Assembly: GCA_017609405.1 (NCBI GenBank)
Contig: JAFCDZ010000001.1
Location: 24,880 to 88,879 of the forward strand
Direction of reading: 5' to 3'
DNA from: Candidatus Pacearchaeota archaeon
Lineage (GTDB): Archaea > Nanobdellota > Nanobdellia > Pacearchaeales > GW2011-AR1
DNA length: 64,000 bases
Part shown: piece after piece, positions 6,741-60,463 of the stretch
How the letters are laid out: the number at the start of each line of letters is the position of its first letter
Numbering within the stretch: the first letter of the stretch is position 1
The notes under the pieces: generated by a model
The model's database searches: none
Told to the model about the DNA's origin: nothing
The model's input: only the letters and a program-made list of their open reading frames with translations
Made by a program: the position numbers and the translations under genes

Positions 6741-7658
6741 ATGAAAGAACAAAAAAAATTCAAACTCACAACACCTGTACTTTTCATAGTCTTTAATCGT
6801 CCTGATACAACAAGAAGAGTTTTTTCTGAAATAAAAAAGGCAAAACCCCCCAGGCTTTATATAGCAGCTGATGGGCCAAGAACTCAAGAGGAGAAGAAAA
6901 AAACAGATGCTGTTAGAGATTATATATTAAAAAATATTGATTGGAAATGCAAGGTAAAAACCCTTTTTAGAGACAAAAATCTTGGATGTAAATATGCAGT
7001 TTCTTCTGCAATTGATTGGTTTTTTGAAAATGAAGAAACAGGTATTATATTAGAAGATGATTGTGTCCCAAGTCAAAGCTTTTTTAGATTCTGCCAAGAA
7101 ATGTTAGAAAAATACAAGAACAATGAAAAAATAATGCATATTTCTGGAACAAATGTTGAAGAGGTTTCTCCAATTAAAGAAGATTATTTCTTTGCGGATG
7201 CTTTTAATGTATGGGGGTGGGCAACGTGGAGAAGAGCATGGAAACATTATGATGTCGAAATGAAAGATTGGCCAAAGTGGAGAATTAAAAGTCTCAGATT
7301 CATGAAAAAACACCCTTTATTAGATAAGATTAAAGGTATATACCTTTATGAATTAACATATCAAAAAAAAATTAATACATGGGACTATCAATGGGGATTT
7401 ACATGTCAAAAAAGAAAAGGGCTTGCAATAATTCCAACAAAGAACCTAATCACAAATATAGGTCTTGAAAGAGGAACACACACGAAAGAGGATAAAAATA
7501 GAGAATTAAAAAGATATGAAATAAAAAAAGGATTCAGGGTAGGGGGAAAATTTAATGGATATTATTTAAAAAAGTATCTAAAATTTTTCAAAAAAAAAGA
7601 AAAAATAATAAAAATACTTTTTGCTAAAATAAAAAATATAAAGAAAGTTTTAAAATGA
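6741..7658 (+). CDS. Putative GT-A glycosyltransferase resembling the GT13 (GnT-I / HlpA-like) family
   Basis: TPVLFIVFNRPDTTRRVFSEIKKAKPPRLYIAADGPRTQEE resembles the N-terminal catalytic block of GnT-I-type enzymes (LVIACDR...SQDCGHEE pattern), from memory. Confidence 0.4.
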   Translation: MKEQKKFKLTTPVLFIVFNRPDTTRRVFSEIKKAKPPRLYIAADGPRTQEEKKKTDAVRDYILKNIDWKCKVKTLFRDKNLGCKYAVSSAIDWFFENEETGIILEDDCVPSQSFFRFCQEMLEKYKNNEKIMHISGTNVEEVSPIKEDYFFADAFNVWGWATWRRAWKHYDVEMKDWPKWRIKSLRFMKKHPLLDKIKGIYLYELTYQKKINTWDYQWGFTCQKRKGLAIIPTKNLITNIGLERGTHTKEDKNRELKRYEIKKGFRVGGKFNGYYLKKYLKFFKKKEKIIKILFAKIKNIKKVLK

Positions 7659-14119: not shown

Positions 14120-14857
14120 CTATTTAAAAATCCTTTTATAATTTTCTTCAACCTGTTTTTCAATCTCTTTTAAAGAAATTTTTTTAATTTCTGCAATTTT
14201 TTTGTAGCTTTCAATTACATTCGCAGGCTCATTATTTCTTTTTTTAAATGGATGAAGAAAAGGTGAATCTGTCTCGCAAAATAATTGCTCTAATGGAACA
14301 ATTTCTACAACTTTTTGAAAATGTTGGCTATAAGTTATATTTGTAGGTATGCTAAAAAACCATCCATTATCAATAATTCTCCTTACTAATTTTAATTTGC
14401 CTGAAAAACAATGCATAATTATTTTTTTATAATTAAATTTTTCAAGAAGCTCTATTGCAATTTCCTCTGCTTTTCTTGAATGGATTATGATTGGTTTATC
14501 TAATTCTATTGCAAGTTTTATGAATTTTTCTAAATTCTTTTTTTGTTTTTCAATTAAAGAACACTCTTTTAAATCTAATCCAACCTCACCAATTCCAACA
14601 ATTAAAGTTTTATTTTTTCTTATAAATTCAATCTCTTGCTCCAGTTCTTTTTCAGAAAGCTTAAGAGCATCACAAGGATAAATCCCAAGACAAGCTTTTA
14701 TTTCATTAAACTTCTTTGCTAAATCAAGTGCGAATCGGTTTGTTTTTTTGTCTGTCCCGCAAGTTAGAATTATTTTTACATTGTTCTTTCTTGCATTTTC
14801 TATTTTTTCATTAACTGGTTTACAAATCTCGAGGTGTGAATGAATATCAATAAACAT
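14120..14857 (-). CDS. tatD: TatD-family metal-dependent hydrolase/DNase
   Basis: MFIDIHSHLE N-terminus and conserved His/Asp pattern. 245 aa. Confidence 0.85.
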   Translation of the reverse strand: MFIDIHSHLEICKPVNEKIENARKNNVKIILTCGTDKKTNRFALDLAKKFNEIKACLGIYPCDALKLSEKELEQEIEFIRKNKTLIVGIGEVGLDLKECSLIEKQKKNLEKFIKLAIELDKPIIIHSRKAEEIAIELLEKFNYKKIIMHCFSGKLKLVRRIIDNGWFFSIPTNITYSQHFQKVVEIVPLEQLFCETDSPFLHPFKKRNNEPANVIESYKKIAEIKKISLKEIEKQVEENYKRIFK

Positions 14858-14879
14858 TTCAATATGGGCTCATTTACAA

Positions 14880-14897
14880 TGGGCGCTGAGGGAATCG
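14880..14897 (-). repeat. Direct copy (17/18 nt) of the 3' terminus of tRNA-Trp, 69 nt downstream of the tRNA in minus orientation
   Basis: tgggcgctgagggaatcg compared with tgggcgcggagggaatcg at 14967-14984, immediately followed by gggcctcac. Confidence 0.85.
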
Positions 14898-14966
14898 GGC
14901 CTCACAAAGTTCGACCTAGTTCGTCTATCGCTACACTCATAGCCAAACTAAACCCAAAGGGTTCGA

Positions 14967-15037
14967 TGGGCGCGGAGGGAATCGAACCCCCGTCTGGCGG
15001 TCTGGAGCCGCCTGTTTTACCATTAAACTACGCACCC
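14967..15037 (-). tRNA. tRNA-Trp (anticodon CCA), no intron, CCA not encoded
   Basis: Reverse complement GGGTGCGTAGTTTAATGGTAAAACAGGCGGCTCCAGACCGCCAGACGGGGGTTCGATTCCCTCCGCGCCCA folds as a cloverleaf: 7-bp acceptor, D arm GTTT/AAAC, anticodon stem GGCGG/CCGCC with loop CTCCAGA, T arm with TTCGATT loop. Confidence 0.8.
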
Positions 15038-15125
15038 TCAAAAAAAGAGAGTGTTTTTTATTTTTAAGGTTTTGGAATTCAAAAAAACCTCAAAAAACCA
15101 ATAAAGTCTGCTAAAATAAAGATGA

Positions 15126-21799: not shown

Positions 21800-24781
21800 A
21801 TGATAGAAAAAATAAGAAAAAGAGATGGAAGAATTGTAGCCTTTAATAAGGAGAAAATATTCAACGCAATATGGAAAGCAGTAAAAGCTGTTGGTGGAAG
21901 TGATGAAAAAAAAGCAAGAGAGATAACTGATAAAATCTGCGAGATAATAAACAGCAGATACAAAGATTCTGTTCCAGGAGTAGAAGATATTCAAGACATT
22001 GTTGAAAAAACTCTTATTGAAGAGGGTCATGCAAAAGTCGCGAAAGCATATATTTTATACAGAAAGAAAAGAGAAGAAATGCGCAAATTAGAAGGATTAT
22101 TCAATTCAATTGAAGTTGTGGATAAATATCTTAATACTGAAGATTGGATGGTTAAAGAAAATTCAAATATGGGTTTTTCACTACAAGGATTAAACAATTA
22201 TATCTCAACAAAGATAATCACAAAATACTGGCTTCTAAAAATTTATCCAGAAGAAATACAAAAAGCACATGAAAACTGTGACATCCATATTCATGATTTA
22301 GGAACTCTTGGAGCATATTGTGTTGGCTGGGACTTAAAAGACCTCCTATTAAAAGGTTTTAGAGGCGTTCCTGGAAAAGTTGCATCAAAACCTGCAAAAC
22401 ATTTTAGAACAGCCCTTGGACAAATAGTAAATTTCTTTTACACTCTACAAGGAGAAACAGCAGGAGCCCAGGCATTTTCAAATTTTGATACTTTGCTCGC
22501 CCCTTTTATAAGATATGATAACTTAAGTTATAAAGAAGTAAAACAAGCAATGCAAGAATTCTTATTCAACCTTGCTGTTCCTACAAGAGTAGGGTTTCAA
22601 TGTATGTCAGAAGATACAGAAATATTAACTCCAAAAGGATGGGCAAAGTATAATGAACTTAAAAAAGGAGACATAATAAAAACATTTAACATTAAAAAAG
22701 GAATAATTGAAGATAAACCAATAAGAAGATTATTCAAAAGATATTATGAAGGAACTATGTATAATTTAAAAAATAGGATTCAAGACCAATTAATTTCGCC
22801 AAAACATAGGGTGGTTAGAAAAAAATTCAATTCAGAAGATTATGTTTTAGAGGAAATAGAAGAAGTTGAAAAGCTAAAATCACCAGTAATAGTCCCTATT
22901 GCAGGAAAGAACATCTCAAAAGATGCGAATATAAGTGATGAGCAAATAAAATTAATGGCTTGGATTATAGGTGAAGGGAGTATTGAACGAAGCAAAAAAG
23001 GAACCCAAAGAATAAGCATCTATCAATCAAAAATTAAAAATAAAAATAATTATTTGGAAATAAAAAAACTCCTAAAACATTTTAAATTAGAATTTGAAGA
23101 ATATACTCAAAAAGGATTAGGAAAACCAGTTCAAAGAATAAGATTAAATTCAAATTCTTCAAAAAGAATCCATAAATGGTTTTCAGATGAGAATATCCAT
23201 TTTATTCCTGACATCCTTCTAAATTTAAGCAAAAGGCAATCGAGATTATTCTTAGAGACATATATTAAAGCAGAAGGATTTGAAAAAAGCAAAATAGCAA
23301 CAACAAATAAAAGAATACTTGAAGGGCTTCAACAAATTGTAGTTAATGCTGAATATGGATTTACTGTTCTAAAAAGAAAACCAACAATCGGAACAAAAGA
23401 AATTTATGTTTTAAGAATAATTAGACACAGAGACACATATATTCAAAAAATCAAAAAAGTAAAGTATAAAGGAATTATCTGGTGTCCGAATACAGATAAC
23501 GAAACAGTAATTGCAAAAAGAAATGGAAAAGTTTTCATAACAGGGAATACACCTTTTACAAACCTCACAATGGATCTAAAGGTTCCTGAGTATATGAAAG
23601 AAGAATATGTAATAATTGGAGGAGAACCAAAACAAGAAAAATACAAAGAGTTCCAAAAAGAGATGAACATGATAAATAAAGCTTTTGCAGAATGCATGAT
23701 TGAAGGAGATGGTGAAGGAAGGGTATTCACTTTCCCAATTCCCACATATAATATAACAAAAGACTTTGATTGGGACAATCCAGAGTATGAACCTATATGG
23801 GAAATGACTGCAAAATATGGAATTCCTTATTTTTCAAATTTTATAAATTCAGATATGAAACCTGAAGATGCAAGAAGTATGTGTTGTAGACTTCGTCTTG
23901 ACCAAGCAGAACTAAGAAAAAGGGGTGGAGGATTATTTGGAGCAAATCCTCAAACAGGCTCAATAGGAGTGGTAACGATAAATCTTCCAAGATTAGGTTA
24001 TACATCCAATGAAGAAGGGGAATTTTTCAAGAAATTAGAAAGACTTATGGAAATAGCAAAAGAAAGTTTAGAAATAAAAAGAAAAGTGATTGAAAGATTC
24101 ACAAAAATAGGGCTATATCCTTATTCAAGATATTATTTATCAAATATTTATCAAAGATTCGGAGAATATTGGAAAAATCATTTCTCAACAATAGGGCTTC
24201 TCGGGATGAACGAAGCAATAATGAACTTTTTGCCAGGAGAGGACATAACAACTGAAAAAGGAAGGGCTTTTGCATTAAAAGTTTTAAAATTCATGAGAGA
24301 AAAATTAGAAAAATTCCAAAAAGAAACTGGAAATATATATAATTTAGAAGCAACCCCTGCTGAAGGAACAACATATAGATTTGCGAAAGCAGACAAAGAA
24401 AAATTCCCAAATATAATCGTGGCTAATGAAAAAGCTGTTAGAGAACAAGGAGCAGCACCATATTACACTAACTCAACACAACTTCCAGTAAATTATACTA
24501 ATGACATCTTCGAAGCATTAGATTTGCAAGATGAACTCCAAATACAATATACTGGAGGAACTGTTTTTCATGGATTTATCGGAGAGAAGATACCTCCAGA
24601 ATCAGTAAAGTTAATTGTTAAGAAAATAGCTGAAAATTACAGGCTCCCATATTTTACAATAACCCCAACATTTTCAATATGCCCAATTCACGGATATATT
24701 CCTGGTGAACATGAATACTGCCCAATTTGTGACGAAGAAAATGGAATATTCGAAGAAAAGATAATCCAAAAGGAGGTGTGA
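21800..24781 (+). CDS. nrdD: Anaerobic ribonucleoside-triphosphate reductase (class III, NrdD) catalytic chain, containing an intein; lacks the glycyl-radical segment
   Basis: N-terminal ATP-cone. C-terminal zinc site ICPIHG...CPIC. Context nrdR-nrdD-nrdG. 993 aa, including a ~316-aa intein. Confidence 0.85.
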   Translation: MIEKIRKRDGRIVAFNKEKIFNAIWKAVKAVGGSDEKKAREITDKICEIINSRYKDSVPGVEDIQDIVEKTLIEEGHAKVAKAYILYRKKREEMRKLEGLFNSIEVVDKYLNTEDWMVKENSNMGFSLQGLNNYISTKIITKYWLLKIYPEEIQKAHENCDIHIHDLGTLGAYCVGWDLKDLLLKGFRGVPGKVASKPAKHFRTALGQIVNFFYTLQGETAGAQAFSNFDTLLAPFIRYDNLSYKEVKQAMQEFLFNLAVPTRVGFQCMSEDTEILTPKGWAKYNELKKGDIIKTFNIKKGIIEDKPIRRLFKRYYEGTMYNLKNRIQDQLISPKHRVVRKKFNSEDYVLEEIEEVEKLKSPVIVPIAGKNISKDANISDEQIKLMAWIIGEGSIERSKKGTQRISIYQSKIKNKNNYLEIKKLLKHFKLEFEEYTQKGLGKPVQRIRLNSNSSKRIHKWFSDENIHFIPDILLNLSKRQSRLFLETYIKAEGFEKSKIATTNKRILEGLQQIVVNAEYGFTVLKRKPTIGTKEIYVLRIIRHRDTYIQKIKKVKYKGIIWCPNTDNETVIAKRNGKVFITGNTPFTNLTMDLKVPEYMKEEYVIIGGEPKQEKYKEFQKEMNMINKAFAECMIEGDGEGRVFTFPIPTYNITKDFDWDNPEYEPIWEMTAKYGIPYFSNFINSDMKPEDARSMCCRLRLDQAELRKRGGGLFGANPQTGSIGVVTINLPRLGYTSNEEGEFFKKLERLMEIAKESLEIKRKVIERFTKIGLYPYSRYYLSNIYQRFGEYWKNHFSTIGLLGMNEAIMNFLPGEDITTEKGRAFALKVLKFMREKLEKFQKETGNIYNLEATPAEGTTYRFAKADKEKFPNIIVANEKAVREQGAAPYYTNSTQLPVNYTNDIFEALDLQDELQIQYTGGTVFHGFIGEKIPPESVKLIVKKIAENYRLPYFTITPTFSICPIHGYIPGEHEYCPICDEENGIFEEKIIQKEV
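22601..23548 (+). mobile_element. Intein with a LAGLIDADG homing-endonuclease domain, inserted in NrdD
   Basis: Begins with Cys (CMSEDTEILTPKGW, intein block A). Two LAGLIDADG-like motifs (LMAWIIGEGS; LFLETYIKAEGF). Ends ...VFITGN followed by Thr (+1 nucleophile). Flanked by conserved NrdD extein sequence. Confidence 0.8.
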
Positions 24782-33194: not shown

Positions 33195-33212
33195 ATGGAC
33201 CCGGAGGGAATC
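33195..33212 (-). repeat. Perfect 18-nt direct copy of the 3' terminus of tRNA-Arg, 132 nt downstream of the tRNA in minus orientation
   Basis: tggacccggagggaatcg at 33195-33212 equals 33345-33362, followed by gggcctcac as at the other two tRNA loci. Confidence 0.85.
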
Positions 33213-33344
33213 GGGCCTCACAGCAACACTGAAGCTCGACCTAATTCGTCTACTCCCTTCAGTCGTAGCCAAATAGGCCTCATATCAAAGATATTCGACC
33301 TGCTTCGCCCAAGCGTGGTCAAAGCAAACCTAAAGGTTCGATTA

Positions 33345-33416
33345 TGGACCCGGAGGGAATCGAACCCCCACCAGCCGGGCCGAAACCGGATATTCTATCC
33401 ATTAAACTACGGGTCC
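33345..33416 (-). tRNA. tRNA-Arg (probable anticodon TCG), CCA not encoded
   Basis: Reverse complement GGACCCGTAGTTTAATGGATAGAATATCCGGTTTCGGCCCGGCTGGTGGGGGTTCGATTCCCTCCGGGTCCA. Perfect 7-bp acceptor, T arm with TTCGATT, anticodon loop TTTCGGC. There is one mismatch at the top of the anticodon stem, so the anticodon call is less certain. Confidence 0.7.
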
Positions 33417-33682
33417 AATCTAATAAAGAAGATAAGGTTTTTTAATTTATTCATAAGACAATTTAGTTGAAAAATTCGTCTTAGAAATTAATTCATACAA
33501 CCAAAGGAGTTAGTAAAAAAGTTTCACATCATTATCAGTAATAAAACATCTTGCTCAACAAGCTAAAAATTAAAGAGCTTGTTAAACCCTAACTAAATGC
33601 TGACCACGCCAAAATTTATCGCACTAACACTTCAATATTTTCAAAACCAAAAAAATAAAAATAGAAAAAAACATAAAGAGAA

Positions 33683-60196: not shown

Positions 60197-60243
60197 AAAC
60201 CAAAGGTTCGAATCAGAATTAATAATGCGGGAGACAGGATTCG
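60197..60243 (-). repeat. 47-nt direct copy of the tRNA-Leu 3' terminus (18 nt) plus its 3' trailer (about 29 nt), about 152 nt from the original
   Basis: aaaccaaaggttcgaatcagaattaataatgcgggagacaggattcg compared with 60349-60397 (one extra c and one extra g in the original), followed by gggcctca. Confidence 0.85.
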
Positions 60244-60379
60244 GGCCTCATGGCGATTTCTTAAATCGACATTGACAAAATCTTTGATTTTAGTCTTGTT
60301 ATAAACATTCGACCTGATACGCTTACTCACTTCGTTTGTAATCATATCAAACCCAAAGGGTTCGAATCAGAATTAATAA

Positions 60380-60463
60380 TGCGGGAGACAGGATTCGAAC
60401 CTGCGCAGGCACTAAGCCACAGGATCTTAAGTCCTGCCCGTTTGACCGCTCCGGCACTCCCGC
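60380..60463 (-). tRNA. tRNA-Leu (anticodon TAA), long variable arm, CCA not encoded
   Basis: Reverse complement GCGGGAGTGCCGGAGCGGTCAAACGGGCAGGACTTAAGATCCTGTGGCTTAGTGCCTGCGCAGGTTCGAATCCTGTCTCCCGCA. Anticodon stem CAGGA/TCCTG, loop CTTAAGA, class II variable arm, T loop TTCGAAT. Confidence 0.75.

Follow-up and report, generated by a model that had tools for sequence, protein, structure and literature searches.

A family of short structured elements between tRNA genes and copies of their own 3' ends in DPANN archaea

tRNA genes are classic landing sites for integrating viruses and plasmids, and the described cases of integration, to our knowledge, all involve kilobase elements that carry their own integrase. 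In the stretch of archaeal DNA analyzed here (64 kb; hereafter the window), the gene for tRNA-Trp is followed, after a short noncoding spacer, by a second copy of its own 3' end. What is the spacer, and how did the tRNA end come to be duplicated around it? The original prediction, made from the window alone, took the repeats for the classic attL/attR footprint of an integrase and the spacer for one of a family of miniature elements.

The tRNA-Trp(CCA) gene, which like every feature described below is on the minus strand, lies at positions 14967 to 15037 and is intact according to ARAGORN and Rfam (tRNA score, 69 bits). Its last 18 nucleotides (nt), from C56 of the T-loop to A73 (14967 to 14984), form the first repeat copy, R1. 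A spacer of 69 nt (14898 to 14966) separates R1 from the second copy, R2 (CGATTCCCTCAGCGCCCA, 14880 to 14897), which corresponds to tRNA positions 56 to 73 and has a single mismatch to R1, C66 to A. A repeat search of the window returned a direct repeat of 19 nt with 95% identity. Thus, ARAGORN, Rfam, and the repeat search bore out the predicted arrangement of tRNA-Trp, 69-nt spacer, and 18-nt copy with one mismatch. The spacer opens with the 5' end of the element (14951 to 14966), which consists of (A)TCG, the reverse complement of the tRNA's own T-loop CGAT, and the hairpin P1, AACCC-TTT-GGGTT. The hairpin and the T run directly after the tRNA read TCGAACCCTTTGGGTTT (14950 to 14966). A second hairpin, P2 (14917 to 14950), has 11 bp in RNAfold; its sequence is variable but, as covariation across the family indicates, its pairing is conserved. 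The third hairpin, P3 (14898 to 14916), is GGTCGAAC-TTT-GTGAGGCC and is composed of a GGUC/GGCC stem, a tandem G.A, and a 2-bp upper stem, with a folding energy of −4.1 kcal/mol on the sense strand versus 0 on the antisense strand. The (A)TCG and the first 7 nt of R2, CGATTCC, serve as the 5' and 3' strands of a further helix, P0. Only 22 nt beyond R2 is the start codon of the TatD gene (14857), and the gap contains no AT-rich promoter-like stretch, so TatD may rely on the tRNA-Trp transcript.

The same architecture had been proposed for tRNA-Arg and tRNA-Leu, and both loci have it, with repeats of 19 and 47 nt. tRNA-Arg(TCG) (33344 to 33417) is intact by ARAGORN and Rfam; its R1 is at 33345 to 33362, and its R2, an exact 18-nt copy, is at 33196 to 33213 (19 nt with 100% identity in the repeat search). 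Between these are two element units. Unit a (33276 to 33343), which matched the covariance model of the family with 57.5 bits, includes an anti-T-loop plus P1 (33327 to 33343), P2a (33301 to 33326), and P3a (33276 to 33300). Unit b (33214 to 33275) is inserted between the GAGGCC of unit a and R2 and resembles the Trp copy. It has only P2b (33242 to 33275) and P3b (33214 to 33241) and, because the anti-T-loop and P1 are missing, is a 5'-truncated unit. tRNA-Leu(TAA) (60380 to 60463), also intact by ARAGORN and Rfam, is followed by an element (60244 to 60368; covariance-model match, 62.4 bits) with an anti-T-loop plus P1 (60350 to 60368), P2 (60315 to 60349), and P3 (60244 to 60314), the loop of which holds a 55-nt insertion. 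A 10-nt perfect inverted repeat joins the anti-T-loop/P1 end to the T-loop. Here, the duplication extends beyond the gene: R1 plus trailer is at 60369 to 60397, R2 plus the duplicated 14-nt trailer is at 60215 to 60243, and a second anti-T-loop/P1 hairpin, which has lost one C and one G and remains paired, follows R2 at 60197 to 60214. The direct repeat is accordingly 47 nt long (94% identity), extends into trailer and hairpin, and has its second copy at 60197 to 60243. The inserts behind the three tRNAs range from 69 to 150 nt and contain no open reading frame (ORF). Because Trp, Arg, and Leu are the only tRNA genes in the 64-kb window, all of its tRNA genes carry the element. When orthologs of these tRNA loci were sought in relatives, the syntenic TatD and FEN1 neighborhoods contained no tRNA.

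The motifs TGAGGCCCGAWTCC, AGGTCGAA, and TCGAACCCTTTGGGTTT occur at three, three, and two sites in the window, respectively. All of these sites are in tRNA trailers, and shuffled sequence gave 0.2 to 0.4 matches per motif; therefore, the sharing is not due to chance. The spacer motif on which the original prediction relied, TAGACGAAYTAGGTCGARC, proved to be limited to the Trp and Arg-b subfamily, but a motif common to the whole family does exist in a different form, the core AGGTCGAR ... RTGAGGCC followed directly by CGAWTCC. A pattern scan with one genome per species gave 115 matches. Eight were DPANN loci with a GC content of 0.27 to 0.36, and the tRNA tail is repeated upstream in exactly these eight. 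The remaining 107, which were bacterial, with a GC content of at least 0.50 and no tRNA-tail copy, were dismissed as chance matches in high-GC DNA. A metagenome scan supplied further copies. (A 155-nt difference between L001 and L002 turned out to be a scaffolding gap of N.) Altogether, we have 17 copies, a small sample gathered in part with the motif itself, from at least 10 assemblies of the DPANN groups Pacearchaeota, Woesearchaeota, and Nanoarchaeota, which upholds the claim of a recurring miniature-element family bounded by a tRNA 3'-end duplication, as opposed to three random scars.

The core was found behind tRNA-Trp, tRNA-Arg (three anticodons), tRNA-Leu (three), tRNA-Thr, tRNA-Ser, tRNA-Gln (two), tRNA-Lys, and tRNA-Gly. 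At least nine tRNA species host this one core, each with the 3' end of the resident tRNA. The element is invariably directly 3' of a tRNA and in the same orientation, and its core is 67 to 82 nt long in most copies and longer in those with loop inserts. A covariance-model search of about 300 kb of DPANN DNA returned tRNA-adjacent copies only. Both the sequence and the covarying structure are preserved in assemblies produced independently, by different studies and from different habitats. Rfam 15, run on the window at gathering thresholds and on three elements with E values up to 10, identified tRNAs only, and literature searches by topic and by motif sequence found no description of the element; the family is apparently undescribed so far.

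The spacer had been said to encode nothing. That holds for proteins, but the tRNA-sense strand folds into a conserved, strand-specific four-way junction with strong covariation. The four helices, P0 to P3, meet without linkers. In P0, the 5' end of the element, the reverse complement of its own tRNA's T-loop, pairs with CGAWUCC of the second copy; this left end fits the T-loop type of the resident tRNA in 15 of the 17 copies. P1 is a short hairpin. P2 is a hairpin in all 17 copies, with four to six pair types per position, and 92% of its positions pair, versus 40% to 46% when the partner is shifted. P3 is a conserved hairpin, GGUCGAR...RUGAGGCC, in which a symmetric tandem G.A lies within a continuous helix and the flanking pairs covary (C-G with U-A). 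RNAalifold predicted P0, P2, and P3 unaided. When all helices are taken together, the paired fraction of cells is 91.6%, versus 72.6% in shuffled alignments and 22% to 47% in slid controls; the covariation score is 0.516 versus 0.165 in shuffles, and none of 500 shuffles matched it. The summed folding energy of P2 is −121 kcal/mol on the sense strand and −57 kcal/mol on the antisense strand, and P3 folds on the sense strand only. A tRNA-like gene on the antisense strand was rejected because folding is far worse there and ARAGORN makes no call. Also rejected was a kink-turn or C/D box small RNA (sRNA): P3 has no 3-nt bulge, and there are no C (RUGAUGA) or D (CUGA) boxes.

The junctions are asymmetric. 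Every time, the duplicate begins at C56 of the T-loop, spans to the discriminator, and continues for a variable distance into the trailer, giving repeats of 18 to 47 nt at all three tRNAs of the window and in every family member with an R2 behind it. The 3' end of the element, ...RTGAGGCC, abuts R2 exactly in 16 of 17 motif copies, the remaining one being unit a at tRNA-Arg, which precedes unit b instead. In contrast to this exact right junction, the left junction between R1 and the element is ragged, both spacer length and anti-T-loop extent being variable, which speaks against an att reading. Although 18 to 47 nt are duplicated, only the first 7 nt of R2 join the fold, and the remainder decays; R2 is decayed in the Trp copy of the window and in L131, where it resembles the tRNA-Leu allele of another lineage.

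Comparison of orthologous tRNA loci for presence or absence of the spacer favored insertion. In a between-species comparison, one genome (L151/L152) lacks the element at the tRNA-Ser(TGA) locus and two (L027/L091) have it; a 93-amino-acid ORF, a convergent helicase, and the gene downstream are shared and mark the loci as orthologous. At other orthologs of this locus, synteny was lost. The assembly that is empty at tRNA-Ser has an element at tRNA-Lys (L100). At tRNA-Leu(CAA), the element is present in L122 and L131 and absent in L061, and many other tRNA genes have no element. Near-identical cores lie behind two different tRNA-Leu genes of one metagenome (L122 and L123), and L122 is a tandem array of repeats (R) and elements (E) in the order R-E-R-E-R, the last repeat of which looks foreign and is preceded by GAGGTT. 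An extra anti-T-loop/P1 hairpin follows R2 in L027 as well as in the Leu copy of the window, and in several copies (L027, L111, and L084), a run of 4 to 6 T separates the tRNA from the element.

We lean, though only a little beyond an even chance, toward a DPANN family of nonautonomous mobile elements that have the 3' part of tRNA genes as their insertion site and leave the gene intact. As the first step of insertion, the T-loop DNA would be broken, or would exchange a strand, between T55 and C56. The duplicated 3' part would be copied from the target and not carried by the element, comparable to a target-site duplication that is long and varies in length; because the duplication would come from the target, one core could lie behind many tRNAs without creating chimeric genes. 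The form that is recognized and copied would be the folded single strand of the tRNA sense, most likely a read-through transcript whose 5' end is freed by tRNA 3' processing. If so, its mode of action would resemble that of SINEs or of the rRNA-specific R2 retrotransposon. As an alternative to this RNA route, a tyrosine recombinase could act on folded single-stranded DNA. A hypothetical enzyme acting in trans would do the work; when the approximately 50 proteins of the 64-kb window were compared with Pfam, no integrase, transposase, or reverse transcriptase was found. Two observations fit this reading less well: a run of 4 to 6 T should end much archaeal transcription and so is hard to reconcile with an RNA intermediate, and the likeness of R2 in L131 to another lineage's allele is better suited to a carried, att-like repeat. 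Separately, a single insertion with target duplication does not simply explain either the extra anti-T-loop/P1 hairpin or the last repeat of L122. We encountered neither an excised or circular form nor an empty allele inside one population.

A more specific form of the RNA route, to which we give a low probability, is that the family is the first target-primed retroelement of the SINE or R2 type in archaea, with read-through transcripts that start at the tRNA promoter and from which tRNase Z frees the element. We know of no archaeal LINE- or SINE-like retroelement. If another tRNA gene were nicked opposite T55^C56, this would bare a DNA 3' end, ...GGAWTCG, identical to the element's own 5' end. 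This DNA end would displace the element's 5' end from P0 and would prime reverse transcription exactly at GAGGCC; because the two share their sequence, the element would carry, in P0, its own imitation of the primer-template duplex. Given that the T-loop is universal, such an element could colonize any tRNA gene, regenerating its 3' end. The copies do have the anatomy of target-primed retroelements: the 3' junction is exact, the 5' side varies or is truncated, and the target duplication has no set length. To judge from their anatomy, they may also share with R2 and SINEs site-specific insertion into a conserved RNA gene, a structured RNA, and cotranscription from the host promoter with a 5' end set by processing. 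They differ in that the window holds no reverse transcriptase/endonuclease partner and the elements have no poly(A)-like tail.

Could the spacer instead be of use to the host? By this explanation, which we regard as possible but doubtful, it is a beneficial module, a four-way-junction RNA made in one transcript with the tRNA and freed by tRNase Z, that works as a small RNA, helps in termination or in the processing of the tRNA 3' end, or provides the downstream mRNA with a 5' leader; the duplicated tRNA end would be a trace of the module's origin and of its copying between loci. The fold is indeed RNA-like, strand specific, and with G.U pairs and tandem G.A; stems are kept while loops differ between orthologs (L027/L091 and L111/L126), the element is always cooriented with its tRNA, all three window tRNAs have one, and TatD, 22 nt past the Trp R2, may need the tRNA-Trp transcript. 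Dicistronic tRNA-C/D box sRNA transcripts of Nanoarchaeum and plants likewise have a small structured RNA, releasable by tRNase Z, directly 3' of a tRNA, and the tandem G.A of P3 occurs in the C'/D' motif; however, the element has no C/D boxes, 3-nt kink-turn bulge, guide arrangement, or Rfam match. A host function is at odds with the presence and absence of the element at orthologous and homologous tRNA genes and its patchiness within one assembly, and these data weaken the processing or terminator structure that had been offered as an alternative from the start. Nor would it account for a duplication of 18 to 47 nt that decays beyond the 7 nt used by the fold, for tandem and truncated copies, or for T runs that often lie upstream of the element, and no known RNA family matches.

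Somewhat less probable still, and in our view unlikely, is a miniature derivative of a tyrosine-integrase element, with true attL/attR sites, a carried tRNA 3' part, and an integrase encoded elsewhere, mobilized possibly from folded single-stranded DNA as in integron attC or CTX phage. An identity block that runs from the T-loop to past the 3' end with a fixed left edge is textbook tRNA integration. Partial tRNA copies flank integrated elements of 9 to 23 kb (PMC9897764), and, as in tyrosine-integrase elements, the insert is flanked by an intact functional tRNA and, at its other end, by a direct repeat of that tRNA from the T-loop to or beyond the 3' end. The tandem R-E-R-E-R array, the heterologous last repeat of L122 after GAGGTT, and the foreign-looking R2 allele of L131 also fit, and P2, as a strand-specific hairpin of free sequence, recalls attC. 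On the other hand, the same core sits at at least nine tRNA species with their own 3' ends, a pattern that a carried attP would not produce; a carried repeat would yield chimeric, dead tRNAs. No integrase lies in or near the element, and the classic attL/attR interpretation is not supported. In addition, a double-stranded circle of approximately 95 bp is an implausible substrate, the element/R2 junction has no inverted core-type sites, and the 5'-truncated Arg unit requires an extra deletion. Tyrosine-integrase elements differ further in being kilobases long, versus 69 to 150 nt here, and in that the present elements lack protein-coding capacity and have a ragged left junction and a conserved single-strand fold.

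The resemblance to integron attC and CTX-phage attP(+) sites is in the folded strand: structure is conserved in a strand-specific manner, sequence is free, and a duplex "site" is formed by one strand, as P0 and P1 of the element rebuild duplex T-loop sequence. In contrast to these sites, the element comes with neither a cassette ORF nor a linked integrase in the window, and its target is the tRNA T-loop. An attC-type site proper was rejected because the R''/R' cores (GTTRRRY) are absent from the alignment and the window has no integrase. A MITE was also considered and rejected. No inverted repeat joins the left end, GAWTCGAACC, to the right end, RTGAGGCC, and the target duplication is not short and of fixed length but 18 to 47 nt, with the left edge fixed at C56 and the right edge variable.

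Archaea have noncanonical tRNA introns and split tRNAs, and a T-loop intron or alternative 3' exon, in which the archaeal splicing endonuclease acts on the transcript so that U55 is linked to C56 of R2, with the same tRNA and a circular RNA as products, would use the two candidate splice sites that lie in register. Minimum-free-energy folding also pairs the 5' strand of the tRNA with the second copy. We nevertheless hold this to be very improbable: an exhaustive search of 13 precursors found no bulge-helix-bulge at a consistent position, the first copy already completes the tRNA, and two R2 copies, that of L131 and that of Trp, with A66 opposite G7, are defective. Mobile bulge-helix-bulge introns and split tRNAs are similar in that small noncoding inserts occur at several archaeal tRNAs, including in a Nanoarchaeum-related lineage, but here the motif is absent, the tRNA gene is uninterrupted, and there is a duplication. 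Lastly, that the elements are decayed remains left by ordinary viruses or plasmids after integration, or that they are artifacts of chance or assembly, is scarcely credible even though tRNA 3'-end repeats are common integration footprints, because the conserved sequence and covarying fold in independent assemblies already contradict these readings, the motif statistics rule out chance, and three scans of viral contigs for a parental virus or plasmid yielded either nothing or chance matches inside coding sequence.

What sets the element apart is that it is approximately 70 nt long, free of protein, and folded into a strongly conserved four-way junction, and that it has the universal T-loop as its target, leaves the tRNA gene intact, and occurs at many tRNA species in ultrasmall DPANN archaea. 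The extra partial tRNA copies are a warning for tRNA annotation, and the element is a candidate structured RNA family for Rfam. Its pairing of a T-loop-complementary guide with a duplicated target may be usable as a compact targeting principle, and the element may serve as a marker of gene flow between DPANN lineages. Movement as RNA would make it a kind of retroelement new to archaea, and movement as folded DNA would make it a new class of recombinase substrate.

Three tRNA genes in the window share one layout, in which an intact tRNA is followed by a small noncoding element and then by a second copy of the tRNA's own 3' part. Directly 3' of tRNA-Trp(CCA) (14967-15037, minus strand; ARAGORN and Rfam agree) comes the trailer TCGAACCCTTTGGGTTT; the spacer is 69 nt (14898-14966, minus) and leads to a second copy, CGATTCCCTCAGCGCCCA (14880-14897, minus), identical to the final 18 nt of the tRNA except for one mismatch. 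The repeat is exact and 18 to 19 nt long at tRNA-Arg(TCG) (33344-33417), and at tRNA-Leu(TAA) (60380-60463) it is 47 nt, extending through a 14-nt trailer and hairpin. The shared motifs are confined to tRNA trailers in the window, at 2 or 3 sites each, where 0.2 to 0.4 matches are expected by chance. The original prediction of this architecture held.

Read on the tRNA-sense strand, every copy has the tRNA 3' end followed by 0 to 14 nt (∼95 nt in one copy), often a T run, and next by GAWTCG, which is the T-loop of that tRNA in reverse complement. This anti-T-loop (ATTCG behind CGAAT tRNAs, AATCG behind CGATT tRNAs) is of the correct type in 15 of 17 copies. Three hairpins follow: P1, a short AACC(C)-loop-(G)GGTT; P2, of 8 to 14 bp, with sequences unrelated between copies; and P3, a conserved GGTCGAR-loop-RTGAGGCC with a loop of 3 to 55 nt, composed of a GGUC/GGCC stem, tandem G.A, and two more covarying pairs (C-G with U-A). 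The tRNA copy from C56 onward (CGAWTCC...) abuts P3 directly. Because no unpaired linkers intervene from the P1 3' strand through P2 and P3 to CGAWTCC, and CGAWTCC pairs back to GAWTCG as helix P0, the fold is a perfect four-way junction. P0 and P1 jointly rebuild the T-arm sequence GGGTT^CGAWTCC as a duplex, with P2 and P3 emerging exactly at 55/56. The fold takes in just 7 nt of the second tRNA copy, those at its start, and the remainder appears free to drift.

At tRNA-Arg, a second unit lies between the GAGGCC of unit a and the repeat; because of this position and its missing anti-T-loop and P1, it is a 5'-truncated unit, and it resembles the Trp copy. At tRNA-Leu, the first P1 copy (60350-60368) is matched by an extra P1 hairpin after the repeat (60197-60214). 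One C is missing from the 5' arm of this second hairpin and one G from its 3' arm, and since the losses are paired, the stem is still intact.

Scanning one genome per species for the pattern gave at least 115 matching stretches. Among the 115 matches listed, 8 had a G+C content of 0.27 to 0.36 and an exact upstream copy of the 15 nt after TGAGGCC, and all 8 are titled Nanoarchaeota, Pacearchaeota, or Woesearchaeota; the remaining 107 (G+C of ≥0.50, no upstream copy) were rejected as chance matches. All 8 matches immediately follow the 3' end of a tRNA (Thr, Ser twice, Arg, Leu, Gln twice, and Lys). At one locus, a divergent variant additionally lies behind tRNA-Gly; it differs in P3 sequence but keeps the four-arm layout. 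A second scan, of JGI metagenomes with a stricter pattern, found copies behind tRNA-Leu(CAA), Leu(TAG), Gln, and an intron-containing tRNA-Arg(TCG). The total is 17 core-motif copies, partly gathered using the motif itself, each distinct in sequence and from independent assemblies. A covariance model run over ∼300 kb of DPANN DNA found no copies away from a tRNA, and literature searches by topic and motif sequence found no published description of the element. In one DPANN locus (L124, 10848-11090, plus strand), tRNA-Arg(TCG) has a short intron after position 37 and is left unassigned by ARAGORN; ∼95 nt extra, including the hairpin GTTTCTT...AAGAAAC, separate it from the element. Another contig, L132, DPANN-archaeal in look otherwise, has an ORF (7042-7596, minus) with precomputed Pfam matches to bacterial sigma-70 regions 2 and 4, which is odd for an archaeon.

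The P2 hairpin forms in 17 of 17 copies, with an energy sum of −121 kcal/mol on the sense strand versus −57 on the antisense strand, and P3 folds on the sense strand only. Counted from the base, 92% of P2 positions pair, with 4 to 6 pair types each, versus 40 to 46% with a shifted partner. From a plain MAFFT alignment, RNAalifold predicts P0, P2, and P3 unaided; 91.6% of cells are paired in this structure, versus 72.6% in shuffles and 22 to 47% in slid controls, and the covariation score of 0.516 (0.165 in shuffles) was reached by none of 500 shuffles. Sense-strand folding and covariation both support the fold, and therefore it is one strand, that of tRNA sense, which carries the structure, whether as RNA or as single-stranded DNA.

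Presence and absence at orthologous loci bear on whether the element is a conserved trailer. In two DPANN loci (L027 and L091), tRNA-Ser(TGA) is filled with the element and has a 93-aa ORF on one side and, on the other, a 284-aa gene converging on a helicase. At the orthologous tRNA-Ser(TGA) of L151 and L152, an AT-rich spacer of ∼60 nt directly follows the tRNA, and then the gene, with no hairpin, P2, P3, or repeat; neighbors at empty and filled loci are 40%, 47%, and 66% identical. The assembly that is empty at tRNA-Ser holds the element at tRNA-Lys (L100). Of the tRNA-Leu(CAA) genes, those of L122 and L131 have the element and that of L061 lacks it. No element was found at the neighboring tRNAs Cys, Met, Arg-GCG, Val, and Ala, or at the Val, Gly, and Asp tRNA genes of the nearest relative. 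Judged by these sequences, the element is probably an insertion, not an ancestral trailer. The empty-site tRNA-Ser (L151, 2264-2941, plus) contains an intron of 34 nt, canonically placed; just before this tRNA, and slightly overlapping it, lies an ORF of 208 aa that matches LAGLIDADG faintly and is not present in L027 or L091.

Copies also show signs of turnover. L122 (10030-10300, minus) is a tandem of tRNA-Leu(CAA), repeat, element, repeat, element, and a differing last repeat; this is another tRNA-like 3' end (CGAATCCTGGCCTCTACA), has GAGGTT in place of GAGGCC before it, and may be a junction formed by recombination with the T-loop of another tRNA. L122 and L123 have near-identical cores behind two different tRNA-Leu genes. 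The second copy has decayed at the window's tRNA-Trp, where A66 would face G7, and in L131, which has A66 plus an extra A, like the T7:A66 allele of L061.

The window has a G+C content of 29% and is part of the chromosome of a DPANN archaeon. Its proteins are archaeal housekeeping proteins (TFB, family-B DNA polymerase, FEN1, GatB, ProRS, and anaerobic ribonucleotide reductase), with tRNA and rRNA modification enzymes also encoded; the nearest homologues of TatD and FEN1 are ∼70% identical, the named ones being from Pacearchaeota or Nanoarchaeota assemblies. The 64 kb encode no integrase, transposase, or reverse transcriptase. In the 993-aa ribonucleotide reductase NrdD (21800-24781, plus), the split of the NRDD match into two stretches and a weak LAGLIDADG-like match at residues 387 to 453 suggest an intein with a homing-endonuclease domain.

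The right-hand junction is exact, with C56 directly after GAGGCC in 16 of 16 motif copies followed by a repeat. The left junction is ragged across copies, and the duplication always begins at the same point on the left but ends variably on the right. In at least 9 tRNA species, the duplicate has the sequence of the resident tRNA itself, and the fold is strand specific. Insertion would start between T55 and C56 of the T-loop, and the active form would be the folded single strand. We favor an RNA intermediate because the element is always placed for read-through from the tRNA promoter and release by tRNA 3' processing; because G.U pairs and tandem G.A occur in the fold; because a 3' junction that is exact, a 5' side that is ragged or truncated, and a target duplication of variable extent are the signature of target-primed copying, as in R2 or SINEs; and because a nick opposite T55^C56 would expose ...GGAWTCG-3', the sequence of the element's 5' end. 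Given that match, P0 might, speculatively, be a primer-template mimic. Against this route, no reverse transcriptase was found in the window, no such elements are known from archaea, and several copies have a T run upstream.

Alternatively, a tyrosine recombinase could act on the folded strand. The T-loop position, the tandem arrays, and the odd repeats of L122 and L131 agree with this; repeats specific to each tRNA, the element's small size, and the window's lack of an integrase do not. The extra hairpin after the second copy (window tRNA-Leu and L027) fits neither model simply. The likeness to R2/SINE retroelements and to attC-type folded recombination sites is in possible working only, and membership cannot be claimed. 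A host trailer RNA, acting in processing, in termination, or as an mRNA leader, is possible and compatible with mobility: the TatD ATG (14857) lies 22 nt past the tRNA-Trp repeat, with no AT-rich, TATA-like promoter stretch between (14855-14879), and transcription of TatD may start at the tRNA-Trp promoter and pass through the element. Unlike TatD, the FEN1 gene that follows the tRNA-Arg element does have a TATA-like stretch, TTTATAT, ∼30 nt ahead of its ATG. The original prediction compared the duplication to an att footprint; the tRNA 3'-end duplication is indeed att-like, but the element lacks both defining features of integrase elements, an integrase and a carried tRNA-specific repeat. In the archaeal integrase elements reviewed in PMC9897764, att duplications flank 9 to 23 kb. 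Ordinary integration scars are rejected because the fold is conserved, which agrees with the prediction that these were not three random scars. Also rejected were a MITE (no terminal inverted repeats, duplication not fixed), a T-loop intron (no bulge-helix-bulge motif), a C/D box sRNA, and, by Rfam search, every Rfam family.

At tRNA-Thr(TGT) of another locus (L120, 3300-3456, minus), the last 7 nt and a 13-nt trailer (ACAGGCTTTGCGAAGCAAGA) recur 56 nt downstream, surrounding a 36-nt insert unrelated to the element. Small insertions of more than one kind appear to be drawn to tRNA 3' ends in these genomes. For the element itself, the tRNA 3' part would be duplicated from the target, not carried in, and because of this, many tRNAs could be colonized without creating chimeric genes.
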